Assembly: GCA_049318805.1 (NCBI GenBank)
Contig: JBMOFP010000003.1
Coordinates: 5,702 to 69,701, forward strand
Length of the DNA: 64,000 nucleotides
Direction of reading: 5' to 3'
Origin: Bradymonadia bacterium
Lineage (GTDB): Bacteria; Myxococcota_A; Bradymonadia; UBA7976; UBA1532
The notes below the pieces were generated by a model. The model was not told where the DNA came from. It searched no databases and saw only the letters and a list, made by a program, of their open reading frames with translations. Positions 48,160-61,192 of this stretch are shown here, in pieces (positions within the stretch are counted from its first letter, which is position 1; every line of letters begins with the position of its first letter). A program made the position numbers and the translations under genes.

Positions 48160-48558
48160 TCAGAGTCCCTGAGGCTGGTAGCGCTTGATCGGGAGACTCC
48201 GCGCGACGGCGTCGACGCGCGGGTTCATCGTCCAGAGCGGCCACTCTTCCCGCAGGCAGAGCGTGAGCACGCAGGCGTCGGCGAGCTGCACGTGGTTGCC
48301 CTGGCCAGCGAGGTGCGCCCCGAGGTCGCCGACCGCGATCCAGCTGCCGCGCGTCTCCTCGACCCAGGGCACCTGCACGGCCCACGTGCGCAGGCGGTGC
48401 GCGAACCCGGGCTGGTCGGCCTCCTGCAGGAGCTGGGCGAAGACCGCCCCCGGCGCCGTCAGCTCGCTCTTCAACAAGAGGTCGTTGAAAAGCGACTCGA
48501 AGCCGCGGGTCTGTCCCCTGAGGGCCGCGCTCCAGATGGTCAGGTCGGCGACGATCAC
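48160..48558 (-). CDS. PIN-domain protein (VapC-like toxin), no cognate antitoxin gene adjacent
   Basis: GTG start gives VIVADLTIWSAALRG... (PIN N-terminal Asp). The conserved acidic positions Glu at about 32 and Asp at about 96 are present. The fourth acidic position appears to be Asn (LWTMN). Confidence 0.6.
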   Translation of the reverse strand: MIVADLTIWSAALRGQTRGFESLFNDLLLKSELTAPGAVFAQLLQEADQPGFAHRLRTWAVQVPWVEETRGSWIAVGDLGAHLAGQGNHVQLADACVLTLCLREEWPLWTMNPRVDAVARSLPIKRYQPQGL

Positions 48559-48684
48559 GGGCTCATCAAAGCCGGATTGCCCCGAGTCGGCAACAGGGGT
48601 CGGAACTTGAATTATTTATGTGATTCTGTATCCTCGCCGACGCCGGGGGGCGGGACGTCCACACGCGACGAAACAGGGGTCAAC

Positions 48685-51600
48685 ATGGTCTCGGGAAACC
48701 GACGGGTGCTGGGTTGGGTGTTGGGTGCGTCCGCCGTCCTGGCCTCGGGGGCCGCGAACGCCGCGCCCCCGCCCGGTTTTGTGGAACAAGAGATCCCCGG
48801 ACCTTGGAGCGAGGCCTCGGGCCTCGAGTGGGGCTCCGACGGGCGCATGTACGTCGTGGAACGCGGCGGTCGGGTCTGGCTCGTCGAGAACGGCGTGAAG
48901 TCCCAGACCCCGTTCATCGACCTCGCGGCCGAGGTCGGCGGATGGCGGGACTTCGGGCTGCTCGGCTTCGCGCTGCACCCCAACTTCGACCAGAACGGCT
49001 TCGTCTACCTGTACTACGTGGTGGACCACTACCACCTGTCGTGTGAGACCAACCCGGCCCAGGCGAAGTGCACGCCTTACAACCCCGCGGCCAACGAGTA
49101 CTTCCAGCCGACGATCGGTCGAATCACCCGGTACACGGCCGATCCGGCGACGGGACGCCGCACGGTGCTGCCGGCCTCGCGGCGCGTACTGCTCGGTGAG
49201 ACGATCTCGACGGGCGTGCCGATCCTGCACCAAAGCCACGGCACGGGTCAGCTCGTCTTCGGCGAGGACGGCACGCTCCTGGCCAGCTCCGGAGACGCCG
49301 GGAGCTACAACCGGGTCGACATCGGCGGGCAGGTCGCCAACGACGACACCTACCGTGTGCAGGCCCTCGCGGAGGGCATCCTCCGGCCTGAAGAGGACAT
49401 CGGCGCGATGCGCTCGCAGTTCCTCGGCTCGCTGGACGGCAAGCTCCTCCGCATCGACGCCGACACCGGCGACGGCTTGAGCTCGAACCCCTTCTACGAC
49501 GCCGCGAACCCCCGCTCCGCGCAATCGCGTGTGTGGGCGCTCGGCCTGCGGAATCCTTACCGTTTCTCGCGGAAACCCGGCACCGGCGGACACACCCCCG
49601 CCGAGGGCGATCCCGGGGTCTTCTACCTGGGCGACGTCGGCTGGGGCTCGGCGGAGGACCTGCACGTCATCGATGGGCCGGGCCGCAACCTGGGCTGGCC
49701 GATCTTCGAGGGCCTGACCGCGCACGGGCAGTACTCGGCGGCCAACGTGAACAACATGCACGCGCCCAACCCGCTCTTTGGCGTCAACGGTTGCGCGCAG
49801 CAGTACCTGTACTTCCGAAACCTCATCGTCCAGGAGAACCGCAGCGGCATCGGCTCGTGGCCGAACCCCTGCAACGCCGCGGTTCAGATCCCCGACAGCT
49901 GGACGGACGGGGCCGGGCGGACGTGGACATACCGCAAGTTCATGCACACCCGGCCGCCTCTGGACTGGCGCGGGAGCGCGCGCGTCGCGACCTTCGACGG
50001 CGCGGGCAACGCGACCACGATCGGCGTCGGTGCGGCCGGCTCGCCGGTCACGGGCACGAGCTTCAGCGGGAACGCGGCGACCGGCGGTGTCTGGTACACC
50101 GGCTCGGACTTCCCGCCGGAGTGGCGCAACCTCTACTTCTTCGCGGACTACGGCGGTGGCTGGATCAAGGCCGGCGTCTTCAACGACGACGACCAGCTCT
50201 CGGCGGTGCGTAACTTCATCGATCCGGGCAACGCCGTCGTCTTCGTCAGCACCTCGCCGACCGCGGGCGGCATCTACTACGTGAAGTGGGGTGACCGCGT
50301 CCGCAAGGTCACCTACAGCCCCGGCAACCGCGCCCCCGTAGCCTCCGCGATCCCGAGCGTCCAGTTCGGCCCCGGCCCGCTGACGGTCAGCTTTCAGAAC
50401 ACGTCGAGCGACCCGGAGAACGGCGCGCTGACGTACGCGTGGGACTTCGGCGATGGCACGACCAGCACCGACGCCTCTCCGACCCACGTCTTTGCGTCCG
50501 AGGGCGGTGGCCCGACGGCCTACTCCGTGCGTCTGACCGTGCGGGATCCGCAGAACGCGGTCGGCGACACCACGGTCGTGGTCACGGTCGACAACACACC
50601 GCCCGCGGTCGAGATCACCTCGCCCCGTGAGGGCACCGAATACCCCATGGACACACAGCGCATCTTCGACCTCACGGCCGACGTGTCCGATGCGGAGTCC
50701 CCGGTCGGGGCGCTCGAGTGTGTTTGGAACATCAATCTGCACCATAACAACCACGTGCACGGCGAGGCCGCCATCCACACCTGCGACGCGCAGGCGGTGG
50801 TGACCCCGGCCGGCTGCGACGGCAACGTCTACTTCTACCGCGCGACGCTCTCGGTGACGGATCCCGAGGGCCTCGTGACGGTCCGCTCCGTCGACCTGCT
50901 CCCGGACTGCGAGAACGACCCGCCGTCGGTGCGAGGCGAGGAGCTCTCGGTCGTGCAGGGCGAGAGCGGGTCGGTCGATCCCAGCCTGAACGATTGGGAC
51001 CGGGACGGTTTCCTCGACCTCACGACGGTCGTCGTCACGCGCCAGCCGAACCACGGCTTCGTCAACGTGGACCCCGAGACCGGCGTGATGACCTACTCCC
51101 ACGACGGGACCGTCAACCTCGAGGACGACTTCGCGTACACGGTGGACGACGACGACGGCGCGACCTCGGCCGAGGCGAACGTGCTCGTGACCGTGTCGCG
51201 GCGCACACCCGTGGTGACGATCTCCGCGCCGAACGACGGCGGCTTCGTCACGGGCATGGCCTTCTACGTCGCCTGGTCCGTGGACTGGGTGCCTCCGGGC
51301 TTCGTCTTCAGCGACGTGTACTTCGGCGGCGCGCTCGTGGCCTCTCTGCCGGCCGGGGCGGGCACGGCGAAGGTCGTGGCGCCCGCGCCCGGCTTCTACG
51401 GACTCAAGGTCGCCCTCGCCGACGCCAATCACACGATCCACGACGGCGGCTTCTCGTCCATCACCTTCGAGGTCCGCGACGCCGACTTCGACGGGGACGG
51501 TGTGCTCGATCTCCAGGACGCCGCGCCCGCCAATCCCCGCATCTGCCGCGACGTCGACGCCGACACCTGCGACGACTGCGCGCGGACCGTCGCCGATCCG

Positions 51601-52350
51601 TTCAACGACGGGCCGGACAAGGACTTCGACGGCCTGTGCAATGCGGGCGACTTCAACGGATGCGACGTGGACAACGGTGGCTGCGACGACAACGCGACCT
51701 GCACGCCCACACCCGGCGCGCGGGTCTGTCGATGTGTCGCGGGCTTCGCGGGCAACGGGGTCTCGTGCACCTCCGTCGACGTCTCGTTCTCGACGGCCGG
51801 CGGCCTGAAGCTCCCGATTCCCAACGACGGGTACGACGGCACCGAGAAGTCGATGGTCTGTCAGGCCTTCGAGGTCCCGGCCTTGACCATCAACAACCAG
51901 ACCTACAACCGCGTCTCGGGGCGCATGAGCGTCGACGTGGCCCTGAACCACACCTACGCCGGCGACCTGACGGTCAAGGTCTTCGGCCCCGCCGGCGACG
52001 CCCTCGCGGTCGTGAATCGGCCCCGAAGCAATGCCGCGGACAATGGCGTGGACCTGCCCCGTGGCGATGGCTCGGACCTGGTTGAGACCCATCCGATCCG
52101 TTTTGTCGACGGTGCGGCCATCTCGGCGGAGAACATGGGCCGTTACCTGGCCGACGACCTCGCGATTTGCCGCGACAACGCCGAGTGCCAGCAGCGCGCG
52201 AACCGCGGGAGCGCCGCGACCTTGAGCAGCTTCGGCGGCTTCACCTCCAAGGTCGCCAACGGCACCTGGAAGGTCTGCGTGGGCGACGCCCACCCTGCGG
52301 ACATCGGGACCCTCGAGTCGGTGTCGTTCACGTTCCGACGCAAGCGCTGA
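48685..52350 (+). CDS. giant secreted PQQ-dependent sugar dehydrogenase (SGDH beta-propeller) fused to PKD, EGF-like and proprotein-convertase P-domains
   Basis: ATG at 48685 with RBS aggggt. Signal peptide VLGWVLGASAVLASGAANA. SGDH motifs (GLLGFALHP, GLRNPYRFS). PKD (YAWDFGDGT). EGF-like (CTPTPGARVCRCVAGFAGNGVSC). P-domain (HTYAGDLTVKVFGPAGDA). Confidence 0.85.
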   Translation: MVSGNRRVLGWVLGASAVLASGAANAAPPPGFVEQEIPGPWSEASGLEWGSDGRMYVVERGGRVWLVENGVKSQTPFIDLAAEVGGWRDFGLLGFALHPNFDQNGFVYLYYVVDHYHLSCETNPAQAKCTPYNPAANEYFQPTIGRITRYTADPATGRRTVLPASRRVLLGETISTGVPILHQSHGTGQLVFGEDGTLLASSGDAGSYNRVDIGGQVANDDTYRVQALAEGILRPEEDIGAMRSQFLGSLDGKLLRIDADTGDGLSSNPFYDAANPRSAQSRVWALGLRNPYRFSRKPGTGGHTPAEGDPGVFYLGDVGWGSAEDLHVIDGPGRNLGWPIFEGLTAHGQYSAANVNNMHAPNPLFGVNGCAQQYLYFRNLIVQENRSGIGSWPNPCNAAVQIPDSWTDGAGRTWTYRKFMHTRPPLDWRGSARVATFDGAGNATTIGVGAAGSPVTGTSFSGNAATGGVWYTGSDFPPEWRNLYFFADYGGGWIKAGVFNDDDQLSAVRNFIDPGNAVVFVSTSPTAGGIYYVKWGDRVRKVTYSPGNRAPVASAIPSVQFGPGPLTVSFQNTSSDPENGALTYAWDFGDGTTSTDASPTHVFASEGGGPTAYSVRLTVRDPQNAVGDTTVVVTVDNTPPAVEITSPREGTEYPMDTQRIFDLTADVSDAESPVGALECVWNINLHHNNHVHGEAAIHTCDAQAVVTPAGCDGNVYFYRATLSVTDPEGLVTVRSVDLLPDCENDPPSVRGEELSVVQGESGSVDPSLNDWDRDGFLDLTTVVVTRQPNHGFVNVDPETGVMTYSHDGTVNLEDDFAYTVDDDDGATSAEANVLVTVSRRTPVVTISAPNDGGFVTGMAFYVAWSVDWVPPGFVFSDVYFGGALVASLPAGAGTAKVVAPAPGFYGLKVALADANHTIHDGGFSSITFEVRDADFDGDGVLDLQDAAPANPRICRDVDADTCDDCARTVADPFNDGPDKDFDGLCNAGDFNGCDVDNGGCDDNATCTPTPGARVCRCVAGFAGNGVSCTSVDVSFSTAGGLKLPIPNDGYDGTEKSMVCQAFEVPALTINNQTYNRVSGRMSVDVALNHTYAGDLTVKVFGPAGDALAVVNRPRSNAADNGVDLPRGDGSDLVETHPIRFVDGAAISAENMGRYLADDLAICRDNAECQQRANRGSAATLSSFGGFTSKVANGTWKVCVGDAHPADIGTLESVSFTFRRKR

Positions 52351-52376
52351 CGCCCCGACCCGGCACGCGCGTAGGC

Positions 52377-54485
52377 TCAGGGCGCGACCGTCGGCTCCCC
52401 CTGCGTCGAGCTCCGACGCGCCTCGCAGGCCTCGAGCTGCTTGCGGAGGATGACCGCGTCGAGGGCCGTCTGCCGCAGTAGGCGCTGGCGAGCGGACTCG
52501 TCGGGACCGTCCAAGCGCAGGTCGGGTGGGCCCGAGGGCCGCACGAGGTCGCGCACGGGGTCGGACGGCGGCGGGTCCCCGAAGGGCACGGGACGCGCGC
52601 TCAGCTCCAGCACACGTTGCTCGAGCTGAGCGCGGAGCGCCCGCTCGCGCACCAGGGACTCGTCGAGGCGCTCCACGTCGTCTCTGCACGTGTCCAGGGG
52701 GTTCTCGACGCTGGATGGGGTCGGTGCCGGCTCGGGGTCCTGAACCAGAGCGACCTCCTGCGCGTAGCGCTGGGTGACCGCGGCCAGCGCTTCTCGCAGC
52801 GCGTCGGAGCTGCGATTGCGCGCGGCCTCGGCGGCCTTGAGGCGATGGGTGAGCTCTTGCACCTCGGCCCGACGCTCCGCGGCCTCGCGCTCCGTCGACT
52901 CGAGCCGGAGTCGGTCCTGGGCGTCGAGTCGTCGGAGCGCTCTCAGTCGCCGAATCTCGGAAACCGCGGCCTCGTGTCGGGCGTTCACCTCGTCCAGAGT
53001 CTCCAACAGCGCCGAGGCCTCGCCCGCGCCCGATCCGCTCTCGAGCCGTGTCTCCACGGTTCGACGCGCATCGTCGAGGGCCTGCGACCCGAGCGTGCTG
53101 AGGCCCGCCTGCACGCTCTCCGAGTGCTGCCGATACGCCAGCAGCGCGGCCGTGCCCGCCGTGGCGACGAACGTGAGCAGCATCGCGGCCCGCCACCGCA
53201 GCGTGCGGGTCGCGGCGACGTTGGCCGCCTGCAGATAGGCGAGCTCCGCCTCCGTGAGGTCCGGCTGCCCCGCGGCGCGCGCCGTGGCTCGAGCGAGCGC
53301 TCCCCCGGTCGGTAGGCGGGCGCGAGGCCGCCCGGCGTCCTCCCACGCCCGCGCCGCTTCATAGAGCGGTCTGCGGTCGAGCAAGCCGTCCACCCAGGTG
53401 AGGTCCAGAGTTCGAGCGAAGACCCGGTTCCTGACGGCGAGCGTGCCGCCGCGCTCGCAGGCCGCCCCGGACATGAACAACGCGCTCTGCACGGGATCGC
53501 CCGCCACCGAGACGACCGCGTGACCGGCGCGCACCCGCCGGTACAGGTGCAGAACGCGCATCGCGGGCGCCTCGACCCAGTCCCGCTCGAGGAACGCCGC
53601 CGCGCTCGCCAGCAAAGGGTGGGCGTGGGGTCCGGTGCGCGGGAACAAGCGCTCGCTCTCCGCCGCGACGCGCGTGACCCAGTCCGCGGCCGATGGGGGC
53701 GAGGTCGGCGTCGGTGCACTCCCGAGGGCGCGCAGCAGCGCCATCGTCATGTACGGGTGGCCGGCGGTTTCGTCCCACACGGCGTCGAGCAGCGCGCCGG
53801 CCTCGGCGGCGCTCCACGCTTCCAGGGCGGGCCGCGCCTGCTCGAGCGAAGCGCGAGAGAAGTCGCCGAGGGGCACGGGCGTGGCGATGTCGAAGGGGTT
53901 GTTCGTCGAGTCGGGGACCAGGTCTTCGGTCCGCGCGAAGCCGACGAGGCAGAACGTGAAGCGCGCCCAGTCGGGGTTGGAGGCCCGCTCGTTGTGCATC
54001 GCCCGCAGGCTGCCCAGGAACTCACCGCGAAAGCGCAGTCGCGTGAGCACGTTGATCTCGTCCAGGAAGAGCACGAGCGGCCGCGCATCGGACGGGAGCA
54101 AGAGGTCCGAGACGAAGCGCCGAAACCGGCCCACACCCCGCTCGGGACAAGCGTTCCAGAAGGCCGTGACCCGGGCGACCCCGAGGTCCGCGGCGCGTGC
54201 GACCTCGACCGCCAGGGAGAGATACCAGCGATCCTGGGCGGCCTCGCCCTCGGCGACGTCGGCGCCGATGGCGGTGAGGTCGATGGCCACGCACCGCCGG
54301 CCCGCGTCGGCCTCGAGACGGCGTTGGACCTCGAGGCGCAGGCTCGTCTTCCCGACCTGACGCGGGGCGAGGACGTGGCAGTGCTCCCCGGCCTTCAGGG
54401 CCTCGTAGAGCCGGTCGTCGGCGTCTCTCCGCACGTAGAGCGCGTTCGGCGGCAGCGCGCCCCCCACGTGGAGCGCGCGGCTCAA
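52377..54485 (-). CDS. AAA_35-like P-loop NTPase with C-terminal TM helix and long coiled-coil (system gene 2)
   Basis: TTG at 54485 overlaps the gene-1 stop (TTGA). The N-terminus LHVGGALPPNALYVRRDADDRLYEALKAGEHCHVLAPRQVGKTSL resembles what I recall of the AAA-like (PF14516-type) family N-terminus. Walker B LVLFLDEINVL. TM helix WRAAMLLTFVATAGTAALLAY. The following roughly 250 aa are heptad-rich and charged. Confidence 0.75.
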   Translation of the reverse strand: MSRALHVGGALPPNALYVRRDADDRLYEALKAGEHCHVLAPRQVGKTSLRLEVQRRLEADAGRRCVAIDLTAIGADVAEGEAAQDRWYLSLAVEVARAADLGVARVTAFWNACPERGVGRFRRFVSDLLLPSDARPLVLFLDEINVLTRLRFRGEFLGSLRAMHNERASNPDWARFTFCLVGFARTEDLVPDSTNNPFDIATPVPLGDFSRASLEQARPALEAWSAAEAGALLDAVWDETAGHPYMTMALLRALGSAPTPTSPPSAADWVTRVAAESERLFPRTGPHAHPLLASAAAFLERDWVEAPAMRVLHLYRRVRAGHAVVSVAGDPVQSALFMSGAACERGGTLAVRNRVFARTLDLTWVDGLLDRRPLYEAARAWEDAGRPRARLPTGGALARATARAAGQPDLTEAELAYLQAANVAATRTLRWRAAMLLTFVATAGTAALLAYRQHSESVQAGLSTLGSQALDDARRTVETRLESGSGAGEASALLETLDEVNARHEAAVSEIRRLRALRRLDAQDRLRLESTEREAAERRAEVQELTHRLKAAEAARNRSSDALREALAAVTQRYAQEVALVQDPEPAPTPSSVENPLDTCRDDVERLDESLVRERALRAQLEQRVLELSARPVPFGDPPPSDPVRDLVRPSGPPDLRLDGPDESARQRLLRQTALDAVILRKQLEACEARRSSTQGEPTVAP

Positions 54486-56503
54486 GCCGACCCCCCGGCG
54501 TAGCGCTTCAGGTAGGTCGACCAGACCGGACACAGCGGAAGCGCGGAGCCGGCGCCGTCCTGGGCGCAGAGCCCTTCGGCGAAGATCGCCTCCTGCACCG
54601 CGCGCGGACGCAGCTTCGGCTCGAGCTGCGGCAACCCGGCCAAGGACGGGGCCACGTCGCTCCGTGTGACCAGCCGCGTGAACTGTAGGTCGATGAGGCT
54701 TCGCAGGGTCTGGGCGCGCTCCAGCGGTGCATTCAGCCGCGCGTCCAGCTCGGCATCGTCCGGGCCACCGCTGAGGAGCGCGCTCACCAGGTGCGGTCCA
54801 CCCCCGACCGCGGCCCGAATGCGCGCGCAGGCGTCGACGGCGGTGACCGCGGGGGCCCACCGCCGTAGGACCGCGTCGAGCTCGCTCGGGCTCAGGTCCG
54901 CCAGGAAGTGGCGCTGCGCCAGGTCGAAGAAGCTCGACTCCGTGCGTGTGCCCGGTCGGTTCAGGCGCGTCACCCAGGCCGTCGGTGTCGCCGAGGTGGT
55001 CACGACGACCTGGAGGCGTCGCCAGGTCGCGCGACCCTCACGGGCCCAATGGGCCGCCCGACGAAGCAGCCCGAAGAGCTCGAGGTCGAGCGCGGCGTCG
55101 CTCGTCGGTAGGTCGCCGGGGTTCTCCACCACGAGGGTGATCCAAGGCTCGGGTGTGGCGTCGATGAGGGCTTCGAAGGCCACCATCAAGCGTTGCATCG
55201 GGGCGTCCACGTCGAGCAGGGACCAGGCCTCGTGGGCGCTGCGTCCGTCCCGCCCGAGGCCCCGCGCCAGCTCGTTCACGAGGGAGTGCGCGAAGCCCTC
55301 GAGGGTGTCGCAGGCGAGGGCGCCGGGCTCGAGTGTGAGTCGGCGACCGGCGCGGTCGCCCGCGACCTCGAGCAGCCGCTGGGCCCAGGAGGTCTTGCCG
55401 AAGCGACGCGGGGAGAGCACGAGCAGCGGCTGTTCGGGGTCCAGGAGGCGCGCGGCGACCTGCGGGTCGAGGTCCCACGGCACCGGCGCGGGCCTCAGCG
55501 TGGGGGGCGGTGTCGGTGGGCTCGAGAGGCCGGCATCGGCGCTGGCGCGGGGCGCCCGTGGCCCCTGCGCGACCGGGGGCGGGCGAGGCGGGGGCACGGG
55601 CCCGCGTGGACTGCCCGCGGGGGGGACCGCCGCGAGGTGCGCGAGCAGGGGCTCGAGCTGCTCGTGGCGCCCCTGGGCGTACCAGACCGGGAAAATCCGA
55701 TACGTCTGCAGCGCGCGGGAGCGTTCGAGCCACGCGGCGTCCCCAGGGTACTCCAGCAGCGCGTAGTGAAAGCACCCCGCGTCGCCCAGGTCGGCGGCGA
55801 CGCGGCTCAAGAGCAGCAGAGTGCGATCGACCCCGAGGCTGCACCCCACGAAGAGGATCGGCCGGGCGCTGAACAGGCGCCGCAGCACCTGCGGCAGCGG
55901 CTTGTCCAGGTCGACCTGGTCGGCGACCTGACTGCCGTAGCAGGCGTCGTACTCCGAGAGGGTCAGCACCCGGTTCGCCCGGTCCTCGATGTCGCCGTGC
56001 AGCTTGAGCAGCGCGCGGCGGCCACCGTCGAGCGCGGCGCGAAACGGCCACGCCGACCGCCCAGGCACCACGGTCTCGAAGCGTCGGCCGGCCGACTCGA
56101 AGACACTCTCGAGCAAGCGGTCGAAGTTCGTCGTCACCACGGGACCACGGGCGAGCGCGGGCAGGTGTTTCACGGCGCCGTCGAGCGGCCGGTCTTGCAG
56201 GGCGTTCGGCCCGTAGACCTTCTCGAGTCGTTTGTGGAAGCTCGAGGCGCCCGCGGAGCGTTCGACACACTCCGCAGCCTCTTCGTACTCGCCTGCGGTC
56301 AGATGTAACTCGACCTGAGACGCGACGCCGTAGCGCGCCCCCAGCGCCCTCAACAGCGCGCTCCAGCTCGGGAGCCCGAAGGGCACACCGAGACCCGCAC
56401 CCACCCAGGGCACGACACCCTGGCCGCTGCCGACCAGCTCCAGCAGCGCGGGCAGGTGCAGGTCGTTCTCGCCGAGGGCGAGGAAAGCGTCGTCGGGTGC
56501 CAT
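54482..56503 (-). CDS. SIR2_2-like NADase domain fused via a Pro-rich linker to a divergent AAA_35-like P-loop NTPase (system gene 1)
   Basis: ATG at 56503 (MAPDDAFLALGEN...). SIR2_2 motifs VVPWVGAGLGVPFGLPSWSALL, VVTTNFDRLLE, LLKLHGDIED. Linker PPAGSPRGPVPPPRPPPVAQGP... Walker A LVLSPRRFGKTSW. Walker B-like LVVENPGDL, lacking the usual DE. Confidence 0.75.
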   Translation of the reverse strand: MAPDDAFLALGENDLHLPALLELVGSGQGVVPWVGAGLGVPFGLPSWSALLRALGARYGVASQVELHLTAGEYEEAAECVERSAGASSFHKRLEKVYGPNALQDRPLDGAVKHLPALARGPVVTTNFDRLLESVFESAGRRFETVVPGRSAWPFRAALDGGRRALLKLHGDIEDRANRVLTLSEYDACYGSQVADQVDLDKPLPQVLRRLFSARPILFVGCSLGVDRTLLLLSRVAADLGDAGCFHYALLEYPGDAAWLERSRALQTYRIFPVWYAQGRHEQLEPLLAHLAAVPPAGSPRGPVPPPRPPPVAQGPRAPRASADAGLSSPPTPPPTLRPAPVPWDLDPQVAARLLDPEQPLLVLSPRRFGKTSWAQRLLEVAGDRAGRRLTLEPGALACDTLEGFAHSLVNELARGLGRDGRSAHEAWSLLDVDAPMQRLMVAFEALIDATPEPWITLVVENPGDLPTSDAALDLELFGLLRRAAHWAREGRATWRRLQVVVTTSATPTAWVTRLNRPGTRTESSFFDLAQRHFLADLSPSELDAVLRRWAPAVTAVDACARIRAAVGGGPHLVSALLSGGPDDAELDARLNAPLERAQTLRSLIDLQFTRLVTRSDVAPSLAGLPQLEPKLRPRAVQEAIFAEGLCAQDGAGSALPLCPVWSTYLKRYAGGSA

Positions 56504-56654: not shown

Positions 56655-57875
56655 GTGCGCACAGTGAATCTGGTCTCGCGTTCCCTCCTCGTTCTCGCCG
56701 TGGGCGCGACCTGCGTCGTCGGTCTCTGCCCGGCCGCCGAAGCGGCGCGGCGCACCAGCCTCGCCGGCAATCTTTTGCTCGAGGACGCGGACGACGTCTT
56801 CCCGTTCCCGCAGCTCTCGACGAAGTACGCGCGGTCCGTGAGCTTCGACTACGGCGAGGCCAAGGGCAGCGGCAACGGCCTGCTGTTGATGGGCGACACG
56901 TACCAGGCGTGGGGCATCGCGCTGCATCGCGGCGATACGACGGACCCGCAGGGGCTGTCCATCGACCACGACCTCGTGCGCCTCGGGGACCCGTCGGGCA
57001 ACGTGAACGACGGGACGTTTCCGACCCCGCTGACGATCGTGGACTTTCTCTATGCCTCGGCCAACCCGGGGGACGGCTCCGGCTGGGGGCTCCGCATCTC
57101 GCTCGGCAATGGCAGCCAGTCCCAAGACCCGAACGGTGACCCCAAGGAGTCCGGCGCCGACCAGACCTACCTGGCCCTGACTGCGGGCTACAGCGCCGCG
57201 GGCAGCGACCTCGCCTATGACCTGGCCGGTTCGCTCGTCTACTCGACCGGCACGCAGCTCGCGAACGGCAAGGAGGTCAAGAGCGGCACCGCCATCGACC
57301 TCACTGTGACCGGTCGCGGCAGCATGTCCCTGGCCGGCGAGAAGGACACACGCCTGGGGCTCCTGGGTCAGCTCGGCGTGAAGGACGACACCAGCTCTCA
57401 GACGGTCGACCCCAAGTTCGACGACGTGGCCCGCTCCATCTTTCTGCTCGCGGGCGCCGGTCCCGTCGTGAAGGTCGCGCAGCGCATCCAGCTCGCGGCC
57501 TACGGCTTCATCGGCGCGACCCTGAACAGCGCGGACCCGAACAGTGAAGGCGACGACGACCAGACCGACATCGCGTCCTACGTGCTCCCGGGCGTGAACC
57601 TCGCCACCGAGGTCCAGCTCCGGGACTGGCTGTTCTTCCGTACGGGCGGCGAGTACACCTTCGCCATCCGCACCGAGGACTCGGGCGACAACGCGAATGC
57701 GCGGAAGGCCTCGGATCGGCAGGGCACCTTCGGGTGGAACGCGGGCATCGGCCTCGTCTTCGAGAACATCACCTTCGACGGCGCCCTCGCCCACGGCTTC
57801 CTGACCCAGGGGCCGGACTTCATCGGCGGCGACTCGGCGCTCTTCGGCATGTTCTCGGCGCGCGCCAAGTTCTGA
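56655..57875 (+). CDS. outer-membrane beta-barrel (porin-like) protein
   Basis: Signal peptide LLVLAVGATCVVGLCPAAEA. Alternating beta-strand pattern. C-terminal ...FSARAKF (terminal Phe). Confidence 0.65.
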   Translation: MRTVNLVSRSLLVLAVGATCVVGLCPAAEAARRTSLAGNLLLEDADDVFPFPQLSTKYARSVSFDYGEAKGSGNGLLLMGDTYQAWGIALHRGDTTDPQGLSIDHDLVRLGDPSGNVNDGTFPTPLTIVDFLYASANPGDGSGWGLRISLGNGSQSQDPNGDPKESGADQTYLALTAGYSAAGSDLAYDLAGSLVYSTGTQLANGKEVKSGTAIDLTVTGRGSMSLAGEKDTRLGLLGQLGVKDDTSSQTVDPKFDDVARSIFLLAGAGPVVKVAQRIQLAAYGFIGATLNSADPNSEGDDDQTDIASYVLPGVNLATEVQLRDWLFFRTGGEYTFAIRTEDSGDNANARKASDRQGTFGWNAGIGLVFENITFDGALAHGFLTQGPDFIGGDSALFGMFSARAKF

Positions 57876-57934
57876 CCCTCCGCGCGGTCCCTCGGACTCG
57901 CGCCGAACGCCGCAGGTTGTGCTAGACATTGGGC

Positions 57935-60900
57935 ATGACGAAGCGGGGTCAACGGAAAACACTCTCGATCCCGGGGGGCGGCCGCGCCGTGCTCCGGGAC
58001 CTCGGCCTCTGGACTGCGCTGCTCCTGGCCGCCTGTGGCAGCGACACGACCACGGGAGGCGCGCCACCGGGCGGGGACGACCCGGACGCGGACCTGGCGG
58101 ACCTCGACCAGGGCGGCTTGCCGGACGCGTACGTCGCACCCGGGCAGGACGCCGGCGGGGACGGCGGGCGGCCGGGTGTCTTCGGCGATCCTTGTCGCAA
58201 CGCACGCGAGTGTGAGTCCGGCTTCTGCATCGAGAACCCCGGGGGGGGCAACATCTGCAGCAGTCGGTGCGCGGGGGACTGCCCCACGGGCTTCGAATGC
58301 CTGCCCATCGGCAACGATGGCCCCGACCGCACCTTCGTGTGCATTGCCGACCGGGGGGAGCTGTGCAAGCCGTGTCAGACGAACCAGGAGTGCGACGACA
58401 ACGAGGACCTGTGTATCCCGATCGGCAACGGCTCCTACTGCGGTGAGGACTGCAGCACGGGGCGCGCGTGCCCGGACGGGTACAGTTGTGAGGATGTGCA
58501 GGTCGCGGGCGCCGGCGGGGAGCCGATCACTGGCCGGCAGTGTATCCCCGCGAACGGCGGCGGGTGTTTGCCCTGTAGGGACGCCGACGGCGACAAGTTC
58601 GGCGACGGCGGTGACTGCCGAGGCTTCGATTGCGACGACGGGGACCCGACGGTCTACGAAGGGGCGCCGGAACTGTGTGACGGCATCGACAACAACTGCA
58701 ACTCCATGGCCGACGAGCCCCAGCTCCTCGAGGCGGCCCCCGTCGGCATGAGCTGCTTCGACCAGGGGGTGTGCCGCGGCGCGTTCGTGCAGTGTTCGGG
58801 CGGCGAGTGGCGGTGCGGTTACCCGGACACCTACGAGGACGCGGTCGAGCGCTCTTGCGATGGCCTCGACAACGACTGCGACGGACAGGTCGACGACGAC
58901 TTCGACTTCCAGAACGACGCGAACAACTGCGCGCGCTGCGGACAGCGCTGCGAGTTCCAGAACGCCGCGGGCGAGTGCCTCGACGGGCAGTGCGAGCTCG
59001 GGGCGTGCGTCGCCGGCTTTCACGACGCCGACCGCAACGCGGGCAACGGGTGTGAGTACGGTCCCTGTCAGCTCACGGCCGCGGGCGTCGAGCAGTGCGA
59101 TGGGATCGACAATGACTGCGACGGCGGCATCGACGAGGACGTGCGGCGGAGCTGCGGCATCGCCGGGGGCCTCTGCCAGATGGGTGTGCAGACCTGCGTC
59201 GATGCGCAGTTCGGGCCGTGCGAAGGGGTCCGCGAACCCTCCGAGGAGCAGTGCGACACGCTCGACAATGACTGCGACGGCAGCATCGACGAGGCCTACA
59301 ACCTGCTCGAGGATGCGCTCAACTGCGGGCGTTGCGGGAACCCCTGCGACATTCGCAACGCGCTGCCCCGGTGCGCGGGCGGCGCGTGCGTCGTCGCGCA
59401 GTGCTTGCCCGGCTGGAACGACGCGAACGGCGACCAGAACGACGGGTGCGAGTACGCGTGCGACCTGACGGAGGATGGCTTCGAGGTCTGCGACGGCGTC
59501 GACAACGACTGCGACGTGAGCGTGGACGAGGGCATCGACCCCGCCGTCGACATCGACAACTGCGGCGGCTGCGGGCGTATCTGCGAGTTCGCGAACGCGG
59601 CACCCGTCTGCATCGACGGCGATTGTCGCCTCCGGGAGTGCGCGCCGGGCTTCTACGACATCAACGGCAATCCGGCCGACGGCTGCGAGTACGCCTGTGT
59701 CTTCCAGTCCCCGGCCGACGATCCGGACCCCGCCTTCGTGGACGCGAACTGCGACGGCATCGACGGTGAGATCGGCCGCGCGATCTTCGCCTCGCCGCGC
59801 GGGAACGACCTCAACCCCGGCACCAAGGAAGCCCCCGTCGGCACGTTGGCGCGGGCCATGGACCTGGCCCTCGATCCGGGTCTGGCCGAGCCCAAGTACG
59901 TGCTCGCCGGTGAAGGGGTCTTCGAAGCGACGCTCCGTTTGCGCTCGGGGGCGCATCTGCACGGCGGTTATCGCCCCGAGAGCGGGTGGGCGCGTTCGGT
60001 GAACTACGAGACCGTGGCCCGTGGTCGCGGTGTCGGGGCCGTGGCGGACGGCCTCGACCGGCCCACCTCCGTGAACTTCATCACGCTCGAGGGCACCTCG
60101 GCCGCCGCCGCCGGGGCCAGCAGCTACGGCCTCTGGGTGCGCGGCGGCGCCGACCTGCTCACGGTCGTCGGCGGTCGGATCATCGCCGGAGACGGCGGCC
60201 CCGGGCTCGCGGGCAACGGGGGCCTCCCGGGTGCGGGGGGCAACTCCGGCGCGCGCGGCAGCGACGGCTGTGACCAGGGCTTCCTGGGCACGGGCGGATG
60301 CACGGCCCAGGGCGGCTTCGGCGGTCCGGCGGTCGCGTGCGCGGCCGGTGACACCGGCGGGGCCGGACGCGGCGGCAACGCGGGCTCCGGGGGCGACCGC
60401 GGCGGGGACGGCGGCGCGGGCAACGCTTCAGCGAACGGCGTGGGCGGTGGCGCCGGCGGACCGGGCGCGAACGCGGGTCGGCACAGCATCGGGTGCGGCT
60501 TCCTCGGTCTGGGCTGCTGCGGCGAGCAGAAGGGGGCGAACGCGGGCATCGGGGGCAACGGCCTCGGCGGCCCCGACGGAGACGCGGGTCCCGGAGGCCC
60601 GGCCTTCGGCGGCATTGGCGGCGACGGGCTCTACGCCCCCGCCCCGGGCGGCGGTGGCGGCTTCGGGCGCGCCGGCGGTGGCGCGGGCGGCGGCGGCGGT
60701 GGCGGCGGCGGGAACTGCGACATCGTGTGCTGCAACAGTGACGTGGGCGGCGCAGGCGGCGGCGGCGGCTCCGGCGGCTGCGGGGGCACGGGCGCAAACG
60801 GTGGCGGCGGCGCGGGTGGCTCCTTTGCGGTCTTCCTCATCGACGCGTGGCCTCGCCTGGCGCCGTTCGAGGTCCGCACGGGCGCCGGCGGTCGCGGCGG

Positions 60901-61192
60901 CGACGGCGGACCGGGCGGTCAGGGCGGACCCGGCGGCGCGCCGGGCGGCGGCGGCAACGGCAACCAGGCGGGCGGCAACGGCGGCAACGGCGGCAGCGGC
61001 GGTCCTGGTGGGCGCGGCGGCGCCGGCGGCGGCGGCGGCGGTGGCCCGTCCGTGGGCATCGTGCGGCTGGGCAACCTCGGCCCCGGCCCGGCGATCGAGG
61101 TCGTCTCGTTTGTGATCGGCGCGCCCGGTCAGGGCGGCGCCAGCCAGGGGATCCCGGGCACGCCGGGTGTCACCGCCAACGTCTGGCCCTGA
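57935..61192 (+). CDS. MopE-like putative metal-binding Cys-repeat lipoprotein with a long Gly-rich C-terminal region
   Basis: Lipobox LLLAACGSD. At least six tandem CDG(I/L/V)DNDCDGxxDE motifs (Myxococcus cysteine-rich repeat). A beta-helix-like region follows. About 300 aa of GGxGG repeats, two CC dyads, then an Ig-like end. Confidence 0.75.
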   Translation: MTKRGQRKTLSIPGGGRAVLRDLGLWTALLLAACGSDTTTGGAPPGGDDPDADLADLDQGGLPDAYVAPGQDAGGDGGRPGVFGDPCRNARECESGFCIENPGGGNICSSRCAGDCPTGFECLPIGNDGPDRTFVCIADRGELCKPCQTNQECDDNEDLCIPIGNGSYCGEDCSTGRACPDGYSCEDVQVAGAGGEPITGRQCIPANGGGCLPCRDADGDKFGDGGDCRGFDCDDGDPTVYEGAPELCDGIDNNCNSMADEPQLLEAAPVGMSCFDQGVCRGAFVQCSGGEWRCGYPDTYEDAVERSCDGLDNDCDGQVDDDFDFQNDANNCARCGQRCEFQNAAGECLDGQCELGACVAGFHDADRNAGNGCEYGPCQLTAAGVEQCDGIDNDCDGGIDEDVRRSCGIAGGLCQMGVQTCVDAQFGPCEGVREPSEEQCDTLDNDCDGSIDEAYNLLEDALNCGRCGNPCDIRNALPRCAGGACVVAQCLPGWNDANGDQNDGCEYACDLTEDGFEVCDGVDNDCDVSVDEGIDPAVDIDNCGGCGRICEFANAAPVCIDGDCRLRECAPGFYDINGNPADGCEYACVFQSPADDPDPAFVDANCDGIDGEIGRAIFASPRGNDLNPGTKEAPVGTLARAMDLALDPGLAEPKYVLAGEGVFEATLRLRSGAHLHGGYRPESGWARSVNYETVARGRGVGAVADGLDRPTSVNFITLEGTSAAAAGASSYGLWVRGGADLLTVVGGRIIAGDGGPGLAGNGGLPGAGGNSGARGSDGCDQGFLGTGGCTAQGGFGGPAVACAAGDTGGAGRGGNAGSGGDRGGDGGAGNASANGVGGGAGGPGANAGRHSIGCGFLGLGCCGEQKGANAGIGGNGLGGPDGDAGPGGPAFGGIGGDGLYAPAPGGGGGFGRAGGGAGGGGGGGGGNCDIVCCNSDVGGAGGGGGSGGCGGTGANGGGGAGGSFAVFLIDAWPRLAPFEVRTGAGGRGGDGGPGGQGGPGGAPGGGGNGNQAGGNGGNGGSGGPGGRGGAGGGGGGGPSVGIVRLGNLGPGPAIEVVSFVIGAPGQGGASQGIPGTPGVTANVWP
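60160..61065 (+). repeat. GGN-codon low-complexity region (Gly-rich, PGRS-like) within the 57935-61192 CDS
   Basis: Long runs of ggcggcggc / ggcggtggc codons. The overlapping antisense and frame-shifted ORFs in the track (60124-60615, 60180-60797, 60231-61115, 60428-61249) are artefacts of this repeat. Confidence 0.6.

Follow-up and report, generated by a model that had tools for sequence, protein, structure and literature searches.

In the assembly of a Bradymonadia bacterium (GCA_049318805.1), a 64,000-nucleotide stretch of contig JBMOFP010000003.1 (hereafter the window; ∼70% G+C) carries two overlapping minus-strand genes, here called gene 1 and gene 2, the products of which each contain a nucleoside triphosphatase (NTPase) module of the AAA_35 family. 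The locus probably represents a split NLR-like sensor/executor pair within the AAA_35 branch of the STAND/ORC-Cdc6-type NTPases, a reading to which a probability of roughly 60% is assigned. The usual single chain of effector, nucleotide-binding oligomerization module, and sensor would thereby be divided in two, with each protein keeping an NTPase module of its own. The two genes and their junction are as follows (all coordinates refer to the window):

Gene 1, 56503..54482, minus strand: 673 residues; SIR2 NADase-type effector followed by an AAA_35/STAND NTPase module, sensor-less; putative output (E-type) subunit.
Gene 2, 54485..52377, minus strand: 702 residues; canonical AAA_35/STAND NTPase, one transmembrane-like helix, and an all-helical coiled-coil C-terminus; putative sensor (S-type) subunit.
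TTGA junction, 54482..54485, minus strand: the TTG start of gene 2 and the TGA stop of gene 1 share 4 nt, as read from the sequence.

A split pair is favored because the two architectures are complementary: gene 1 carries an effector without a sensor (it ends where its AAA_35 module ends, with no C-terminal sensing domain on the same polypeptide), and gene 2 carries a transmembrane helix and a C-terminal extension without an effector. It is also favored because the two NTPase modules are homologous, because the pairing and the tight spacing are conserved, and because the same layout recurs with other outputs and other sensors. Taken from these sequence features, an obligate two-protein system with the canonical ATPase site on the downstream partner is strongly favored. 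An earlier, sequence-only reading of the interval 54482..55513, which corresponds to the C-terminal 343 residues of gene 1 plus its stop codon, had proposed a regulatory pseudo-ATPase; the regulatory part of that proposal is wrong, as a protein with an effector and without a sensor is an output subunit. Although the listed open reading frame (ORF) of gene 1 reaches upstream to a TTG at 56770, the ATG at 56503 is preferred because every ortholog begins there in the alignment (MAPDD.../MPLPD...). The sequence of the gene 1/gene 2 junction is GGTCGGCTTGAGCC, and the stretch in which the gene 2 TTG overlaps the gene 1 TGA is GCTTGAGC. A scan for promoters and terminators yielded nothing above chance.

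Gene 2 matches AAA_35 (PF14516) in Pfam with 75.9 bits (E 3.3e-21), above the gathering threshold of 27 bits. For gene 1, Pfam returned SIR2_2 (E 5e-22) and a sub-threshold AAA_35 match (19.9 bits, E 3.5e-4). Irrespective of which of the two proteins was searched, AAA_35 was the only NTPase family in Pfam at E≤1. The assignment of gene 1 is further supported by its nine full-length homologs, eight of which (44–48% identical) carry precomputed SIR2_2 and AAA_35 matches, whereas the ninth, 97% identical, is annotated with SIR2_2 alone; in addition, the gene 1 module aligns end to end with AAA_35 proteins scoring 139–381 bits. Pairwise BLASTP of the two modules recovered only the Walker A region (E 0.002). 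Profile–profile comparison of the two ortholog families with hhalign, in contrast, aligned them over 241 columns (probability 97.5%, E 8.3e-12), which upholds the homology claimed by the sequence-only reading, and set the E-N of gene 1 opposite the D-E of gene 2. The motifs concerned are the following:

Gene 1 Walker A/P-loop SPRRFGKTS, 55388..55414, minus strand: residues 364–372, following strand β1 in the AlphaFold2 model.
Gene 1 non-canonical Walker B ITLVVENPGDL, 55109..55141, minus strand: residues 455–465, with E460 (55124..55126) in place of Asp and N461 in place of the catalytic Glu.
Gene 1 strand β4/sensor-1 region RLQVVVTTS, 54992..55018, minus strand: residues 496–504, strand 167–173 of the domain in the AlphaFold2 model.
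Gene 1 ESSFFDLAQRHFLADLS (β5 and entry to the helical domain) and VGGGPHL (the GxP motif of STAND-type modules), 54788..54940, minus strand.
Gene 2 Walker A APRQVGKTS, 54342..54368, minus strand: residues 40–48; P41, R42, Q43, V44, G45, and K46 are invariant in the gene 2 family.
Gene 2 canonical Walker B LVLFLDEINVL, 54045..54077, minus strand: residues 137–147; D142 and E143 are invariant in the gene 2 family.

Both Walker A and both Walker B motifs had been quoted by the sequence-only reading and are indeed present. That the Walker B motif of the SIR2-fused module is non-canonical, with E-N for D-E, also stands, and follows from three lines of evidence: the hhalign alignment, the structural model, and the invariance of the residues. 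In the AlphaFold2 model of the gene 1 module (36-row alignment; predicted local distance difference test [pLDDT] 91.3, predicted template modeling score 0.89), strands were found at positions 30–33, 57–61, 125–130, 167–173, and 200–203 (domain numbering); ITLVVE forms strand β3, and E460 is its final residue, that is, the Walker B position. E460, N461, P462, and G463 are invariant in 10 sequences (the window copy and its nine homologs), and ENPG[DE]L is kept across orthologs that share just 44–48% identity. Judged by this conservation, ENPG[DE]L is a selected motif and not the product of decay, which makes the earlier term "degenerate" misleading. A search by regular expression for a conserved hhhh[DE][DE] at other positions was negative for all ten members of the gene 1 family; an intact Walker B hidden at another position, which would have spoken against the assignment, is thus not apparent there.

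The remainder of the gene 1 module is that of a regular AAA_35 protein in most respects. F368, G369, K370, T371, and S372 of the P-loop are invariant in the gene 1 family. At residue 364 (55412..55414), where the Walker A consensus GxxxxGK[ST] has its first Gly, the window copy and P0001, its 97%-identical relative, have Ser; the eight more distant orthologs read GPKQFGKTS. RLQVVVTTS is followed by xTPxAW in gene 1, where canonical AAA_35 members have STE[PA]. S193, F196, G238, and P240 (domain numbering) are fully or almost fully conserved among AAA_35 relatives, and a conserved TAGHPYM motif in gene 2 is the counterpart of VGGGPHL in gene 1. Foldseek retrieved as best solved folds for the gene 1 module the Pyrococcus Walker-type ATPase 2qen, archaeal Cdc6/Orc1, Avs3, and the plant NLR RPP1, and for gene 2 Orc1/Cdc6, Avs3, Avs4, plant TNLs, and EfAvs5, with WRR4A also among the top matches of the two; models and Foldseek together assign to both modules the NBD-HD-WHD fold of the STAND/ORC type. 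Searched against the sequences in the PDB, the E-type profile matched P-loops only (midasin, ClpC, and others) and yielded no AAA_35 member with a solved structure.

How the two modules are related was addressed by neighbor joining of 38 NTPase modules over 328 columns, with 100 bootstraps. The small size of the tree and the low identity of its sequences (∼20%) are a weakness of this part of the argument and leave strong splits alone trustworthy: the S-type modules were monophyletic in 100/100 bootstraps, as was the gene 1 family, and a clade comprising the gene 1 family and its own partners was obtained in 0/100. The place of the gene 1 family among the other AAA_35 modules is not settled by the tree. 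The two roles appear to be old, co-inherited lineages because the S-type modules are monophyletic. By sequence, the modules of gene 1 and gene 2 are homologous, and they diverged long ago, before effectors and sensors were swapped. A recent tandem duplication of gene 2 as the source of the gene 1 module is rejected on the basis of the 0/100 bootstraps. When the gene 1 NTPase module was used as phmmer query against 1.84 billion cluster representatives, three strong matches, none from outside the gene 1 family, and 16 weak matches (E 3e-8 to 8e-4) were obtained, and no gene-2-type protein was among the matches at E≤1e-3. Of the earlier description of the SIR2-fused domain as a diverged paralog of the downstream NTPase, homology therefore survives and descent as a copy of its own neighbor does not. 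The weak matches that were scanned are short AAA_35 proteins, mostly with an N-terminal TIR, EAD7/EAD11, metallophosphatase, or BTAD domain; all but one end with the AAA_35 module, the exception ending in a GerE helix-turn-helix (HTH) domain. The nearest relatives lack a Glu after the Walker B Asp (D-R, D-N, D-H, D-D, and D-L), and one has Glu at the Asp position, whereas the more distant AAA_35 members in the alignment have the canonical DExD. A homolog search with the E-type module alignment recovered four proteins only.

Full-length SIR2-AAA_35 proteins were found in only three metagenome-assembled genomes (Bradymonadia, Myxococcota, and "Myxococcales") among 185,579 species genomes. In every orthologous contig that is long enough (L001–L003, L004, L005, L006, and L007), gene 2 lies directly downstream with a 4-nt NTGA overlap. 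The start/stop overlap to which the sequence-only reading drew attention is hence real, with stoichiometric co-expression as a conceivable consequence, and is found, beyond the window, in L001, L004, L005, L006, L007, and also in L062, where P0029, a gene 2 homolog of 37% identity (AAA_35-transmembrane-coiled coil), follows a Metallophos-AAA_35 gene (Walker B VLVIEALD). The same layout recurs with other domains at both ends:

L066: upstream output TIR-AAA_35, downstream sensor AAA_35-WD40.
L067: upstream output EAD7-AAA_35, downstream sensor AAA_35-kinase-FGE.
L068: upstream truncated SIR2-AAA_35, Walker B LAIESS; the contig, 2 kb long, ends in the downstream S-type gene.
L069: upstream AAA_35 with unassigned N-terminus, downstream sensor AAA_35-WD40.

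All downstream partners share the N-terminal signature GG.L...LY[IV].R.AD..L..AL..G.[HF]C[HY][VI]LAPRQxGK. A collection of metagenomes was scanned with the S-type signature, which yielded 34 loci. In 28 of them, the next ORF upstream, encoded on the same strand, lacks a sensor and ends in an AAA_35 module; three of the six loci without such a gene have only ∼650–720 nt of upstream sequence. Spacing could be measured for 26 pairs: the genes overlap by 1–10 nt in 17 (by exactly 4 nt in 13), are separated by 2–42 nt in eight, and are 1.4 kb apart in one, so that 25 of the 26 are spaced between −10 and +42 nt. Where the Walker B motif was visible, the S-type modules read D-E without exception (32/32) and the E-type modules never did (0/26). 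This agrees with the proposal that gene 2 holds the canonical ATPase site, and the odd Walker B motif, instead of being peculiar to gene 1, belongs to a pattern found throughout the lineage. The 26 E-type modules read D-R (10), E-E (5), D-N (2), E-K (2), or, once each, D-K, D-Q, D-A, E-Q, E-R, E-N (L100, GIENADML), and no acidic residue at all (L099); these counts are loci and not independent events, many of the D-R loci being closely related. The variety of substitutions indicates repeated divergence at the Walker B position.

The Walker A motif of some E-type modules is altered as well, reading GRT in L093 and L099 (GPERCGRTW and GERGSGRTW) and GKG in L089 and L090. The combination in L099 of an Arg in Walker A and the lack of a Walker B acid suggests, from the sequence, that part of the lineage has lost its nucleotide site completely. 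N-terminal to their modules, the E-type proteins carry a metallophosphatase, a trypsin-like peptidase, both together, an XRE-type HTH, or a protein kinase. Most S-type proteins end in a WD40 propeller and one in an MFS/POT transporter; the C-termini of others have no Pfam match, as in the window. In L089 (2288..6411) and L090, an XRE-type HTH-AAA_35 protein (Walker A GKG, Walker B E-K) is paired with an AAA_35-MFS/POT transporter, an arrangement more suggestive of a transcriptional switch linked to a transporter than of a killing system.

From this pattern, the SIR2-fused module probably binds nucleotide and hydrolyzes it poorly or not at all. Binding in place of hydrolysis would be in line with the Walker B asymmetry and has published parallels in the nSTAND2 precedent (see below) and in the mutants of PaAvs5-1, a single-chain SIR2-STAND protein in which the Walker B sequence IIFIE is followed by Arg: E410A kills defense, E410Q keeps it, and its authors assign to Walker B a role in nucleotide binding and conformational change, not in hydrolysis (PMC12931631). 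Several observations weigh against this interpretation. E460 is still acidic at the Mg2+-coordinating position, and another acidic residue (D/E464) follows four residues on. The five E-E modules have two acidic residues. In L070, a TIR-AAA_35 protein encoded beside an S-type-like AAA_35-WD40 protein, with the gene order reversed, has a canonical D-E (DEVD), and the truncated S-type of L068 (1549..2031) reads VVVFIAEIDVT, that is, A-E, being the sole S-type seen without D-E. Given the E-E modules and L070, loss of the catalytic Glu is common among the output proteins and not obligatory for pairing. NACHT-type modules use hhhhDGxDE. With E460 and D464 both acidic and the NACHT-type pattern in mind, hydrolysis by a shifted acidic residue is conceivable.

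These points feed into an alternative in which the SIR2-fused module would be a working NTPase, with E460 holding Mg2+ and E460, D464, or an acidic residue of LDLELF activating the water; gene 1 would then oligomerize by itself, gene 2 would only trigger it, and no mixed ring would form. It would account for the strict conservation of the gene 1 P-loop and for the invariance, and hence selection, of ENPG[DE]L with its acidic residues at the Asp position and at +4, and the D-x-x-D pattern kept by relatives and the five E-E modules are consistent with it. On the other hand, it is at odds with the distribution of D-E between the two roles, with output-type modules that have lost the Walker A Lys or Thr (as expected if hydrolysis or binding is dispensable), with the E410Q mutant of Avs5, which shows that a SIR2-STAND protein can function without the catalytic carboxylate, and with the lack of a sensor on gene 1 that could trigger self-assembly. 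We consider this alternative unlikely.

The N-terminal part of gene 1 carries the effector, the features of which are the following:

SIR2 domain, 55604..56431, minus strand: ∼residues 25–300 of gene 1.
Rossmann motif VGAGLGVP, 56381..56404, minus strand: invariant in the gene 1 family alignment.
TTNFD with the catalytic-type Asn126, 56120..56134, minus strand: invariant in the gene 1 family alignment.
KLHGD with the catalytic-type His169, 55991..56005, minus strand: invariant in the gene 1 family alignment.

Its closest solved relatives are the SIR2 NADase of KomC (E 1.8e-10) and ThsA; KLHGD aligns with KFHGD of KomC, including H146 (a structure of the H146N mutant is deposited), and PADLOC matches gene 1 to ThsA with E 3.6e-12. 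The sequence features that characterize SIR2_2 defense-type NADases, namely the GAG Rossmann motif, the Asn of TTNxD, and the His of HG, are all found in gene 1. By domain and motifs, the SIR2 domain thus appears to belong to the defense-type NADase group (ThsA/KomC/DSR-like), which would imply NAD+ cleavage as the output of the locus. Outside the gene 1 family, the nearest SIR2 domains reside on single-chain SIR2-NB-ARC-TPR STAND proteins. Gene 1 was also considered, and rejected, as Avs5, Dsr1, PDC-S25/S65, or Lamassu LmuA, as the PADLOC and NCBIfam matches cover the SIR2 part only and lie far below the cut-offs (for Avs5, 11.3 bits against a cut-off of 1000 for NF041814, and E 0.012 in PADLOC). 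A weak match to DS41_1_antiphage (E 0.13), confined to the P-loop region, was not used.

Beyond its NTPase module, gene 2 comprises two further features:

Transmembrane-like hydrophobic helix AAMLLTFVATAGTAALLAY, 53133..53189, minus strand: residues 433–451, from a Kyte-Doolittle scan, within AlphaFold2 helix 411–454.
C-terminal helical/coiled-coil region, 52380..53105, minus strand: ∼residues 461–702, diverging between orthologs.

The AlphaFold2 model of gene 2 has a pLDDT of 82 overall and of about 90 for the confident residues 1–405, which are followed by helices 411–454 (holding the hydrophobic segment), 461–482, 486–580, 595–629, and 662–692. Homologs of gene 2 are P0020–P0030; BLASTP alignments to the orthologs P0021–P0029 span the N-terminal ∼60% of the query only. 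A transmembrane helix and a coiled coil stand where single-chain STAND proteins carry repeats, and from this domain arrangement gene 2 is likely the sensor and regulator. A conserved Cys-rich tail (…LCVTAVSIA…RRLCGVAACLEARNPQDQCL…LCP) is found at the C-terminus of the gene 2 orthologs. In the window, the protein is shorter at this end (52377..52500; …QLEACEARRSSTQGEPTVAP), and only two cysteines are left in its C-terminal region. As a guess from sequence, the conserved cysteines of the ortholog tails would fit an extracytoplasmic location. All full-length S-type partners that were examined have a single transmembrane-like helix C-terminal to the NTPase module, or to the kinase domain in the case of L067, irrespective of the nature of their C-terminus. 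The WD40-containing S-types L066, L069, L070, L072, L079, and L085 have this helix after the NTPase module and ahead of the propeller, which would place the propeller outside the cytoplasm unless the helix does not really cross the membrane.

The split-pair reading suggests the following course of events. A signal perceived at the C-terminal or membrane part of gene 2 would switch its NTPase module to a nucleotide-bound, assembly-competent state, and this module would then recruit or template the module of gene 1 via NTPase–NTPase contacts into a mixed oligomer. The SIR2 domains would thereby be brought together and activated, and depletion of NAD+ would lead to growth arrest or death. The nucleotide of gene 1 would serve as a structural or conformational cofactor, hydrolyzed slowly or not at all, and hydrolysis-driven control or reset, if any, would reside in gene 2. 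We infer from the sequences four elements of this scheme: nucleotide binding without hydrolysis, physical hetero-oligomerization, the NADase output, and the nature of the signal. Observed directly are the domain content, the states of the motifs and their positions in the structure, the homology, the conservation of the pair and of its tight spacing, and the systematic Walker B asymmetry.

The opposite sign of regulation would also be conceivable: gene 2 may act as a guard or antitoxin-like inhibitor, the loss, sequestration, or conformational change of which would free gene 1 to self-assemble and to deplete NAD+. The tight translational coupling with the effector gene first resembles toxin–antitoxin logic, homologous modules could heterodimerize, and negative regulation within plant NLR pairs is known. 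However, the S-type proteins carry large and variable sensor-like domains (WD40, FGE, kinase, and MFS), which are typical of activating receptors, and some of the outputs are HTH proteins, which are non-toxic and need no antitoxin. Whether gene 2 activates or releases gene 1, the present data fit either; as a full account of the locus, the inhibitor is rather improbable.

Extending the split-pair reading beyond the window, a split AAA_35 sensor/output pair may be defined as a sensor-less output-AAA_35 gene abutting an AAA_35 gene that has [CA][HY][VI]LAPRQxGK, D-E, a transmembrane-like helix, and a C-terminal sensor region. These features are present in the window, in L001, L004, L006, L007, L062, L066, L067, and L069, and in 28 of the 34 metagenome loci. 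Such pairs might constitute a widespread, hitherto undescribed class of membrane-anchored, split NLR-like systems, in which a transmembrane sensor templates a non-hydrolyzing output protein and both ends are interchangeable; its outputs would be SIR2, TIR, protease, phosphoesterase, kinase, or HTH, and its sensors coiled coil, WD40, FGE/lectin, or MFS transporter. This generalization is tentative, and we hold it to be somewhat less likely true than false. No description of AAA_35 pairs was found in the literature searched, where PF14516 yielded no paper and "AAA_35" matches unrelated strings, which is no proof that none exists.

On one side, the pair is flanked by a large secreted-type GSDH/PKD/Big_9/EGF/P-domain protein (48292..52350, plus strand), and on the other by a 406-residue protein without Pfam match (56655..57875, plus strand). 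The flanking genes are syntenic across the orthologous contigs, both of them with the pair in L001–L003; the GSDH-type gene is absent from L004. Further on (57929..61192, plus strand), a 1087-residue ORF contains MopE-type Cys-rich metal-binding repeats followed by a long Gly-rich tail; local G+C reaches 0.80 near 60000–61000, and a similar gene is also found in the orthologous neighborhoods. The ORF at 48616..53346 (minus strand; 1576 residues), which is antisense to the GSDH gene and extends into the 3′ end of gene 2, and other long alternative-frame ORFs are the artifact usual at ∼70% G+C and not genes.

It also counts against a defense system that the pair sits outside any recognizable defense island, its neighbors being secreted or housekeeping proteins that are syntenic across genomes. 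An immune role is thus putative, being deduced from domain content only. That the pair would instead serve housekeeping trans-membrane signaling (envelope or developmental) in a myxobacterium-like organism, with SIR2 as a regulated deacylase or ADP-ribosyltransferase, would fit the stable, syntenic context free of defense or mobile genes, the sister systems with HTH outputs and an MFS/POT transporter sensor, and the restriction of the gene 1 family to few Myxococcota/Bradymonadia genomes, but is very improbable in view of the SIR2_2 grouping with the defense NADases ThsA, KomC, and Dsr1 as best matches, the NB-ARC-TPR STAND proteins carrying the closest outside SIR2 domains, and the classic conflict effectors (TIR, trypsin, metallophosphatase, and EAD7) among the other sister outputs.

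Among known systems, Avs5 resembles gene 1 in that an NADase-type SIR2 effector lies N-terminal to a STAND-type NTPase, and in that a lone Glu in the Walker B motif precedes a residue that is not acidic (IIFIE-R in PaAvs5-1, LVVE-N in gene 1). Unlike Avs5, which is one chain with its own C-terminal TPR/Sel1 repeat sensor, the sensor here would be part of a separate protein that has an NTPase module too; furthermore, the NTPase family of Avs5 is nSTAND3, whereas it is AAA_35 here, with no nSTAND3 match in Pfam at E≤1.

Closer in gene organization are the two-gene operons of nSTAND2 systems, in which an effector-fused STAND has eroded NTP motifs and for which a toroidal hetero-multimer was predicted (Kaur, Iyer, Burroughs, and Aravind, 2021, eLife; PMC8195603). 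There, too, two paralogous STANDs form an operon, the effector-fused one is altered (in gene 1 only in part), the other is intact, and the effectors vary. The nSTAND2 clade is placed near the CR-ATPases and S29/Dap3, and its effectors are GT4 and HEPN (PMC8195603); the proteins described here, both of Pfam AAA_35, are set apart from it by that description. They differ, in addition, in that gene 1 has an intact P-loop and only Walker B altered, whereas the nSTAND2 effector subunit has eroded motifs, and in that the intact partner carries a transmembrane helix and sensor domains. Seen by sequence, the pair may be regarded as a variation on STAND conflict or signaling systems with an inactive paralogous partner, which are already known.

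In EAD-coupled STAND systems, effector and STAND sensor are separate neighboring genes that are coupled homotypically via small EAD adaptors (Kaur et al., 2020; PMC7159879). Separate genes are common to both, and the output subunit of the sister system L067 is itself EAD7-AAA_35; unlike the small adaptor EADs, however, the shared element here is the NTPase module itself. ORC and archaeal Orc1-Cdc6 proteins are the closest solved folds of both modules, and catalytic competence is confined to some subunits in ORC-type hetero-oligomers (noted in PMC8195603). They differ in being DNA replication initiators without effector or sensor domains, and their sequence likeness is limited to the P-loop.

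Most of the STAND/NLR-like immune proteins of bacteria that have been studied to date sense, oligomerize, and execute within one chain. Plant NLR pairs are often encoded by neighboring genes and frequently include one partner with non-canonical nucleotide-binding motifs, and it is the P-loop of the sensor, not that of the executor, which is typically dispensable. Like plant paired sensor/helper NLRs and animal NAIP-NLRC4, the pair would consist of two homologous NOD proteins that split sensing and execution, although this is an analogy only, as the NOD families differ and plant partners usually both keep leucine-rich repeats, whereas the executor here is sensor-less. As D-E in the scanned loci is always on the sensor and never on the executor, the contributions of hydrolysis and binding to STAND switches should be testable with few point mutants. 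The interchangeable outputs and sensors suggest a general design for trans-membrane signaling, not only a cell-suicide device. If true, the tentative class of AAA_35 pairs would amount to a prokaryotic sensor/helper NLR system, able to relay envelope signals to the cytoplasm, and the pair in the window, if it works as suggested, would be a bacterial counterpart of the division of labor between sensor and helper in plant NLR pairs and in NAIP-NLRC4.

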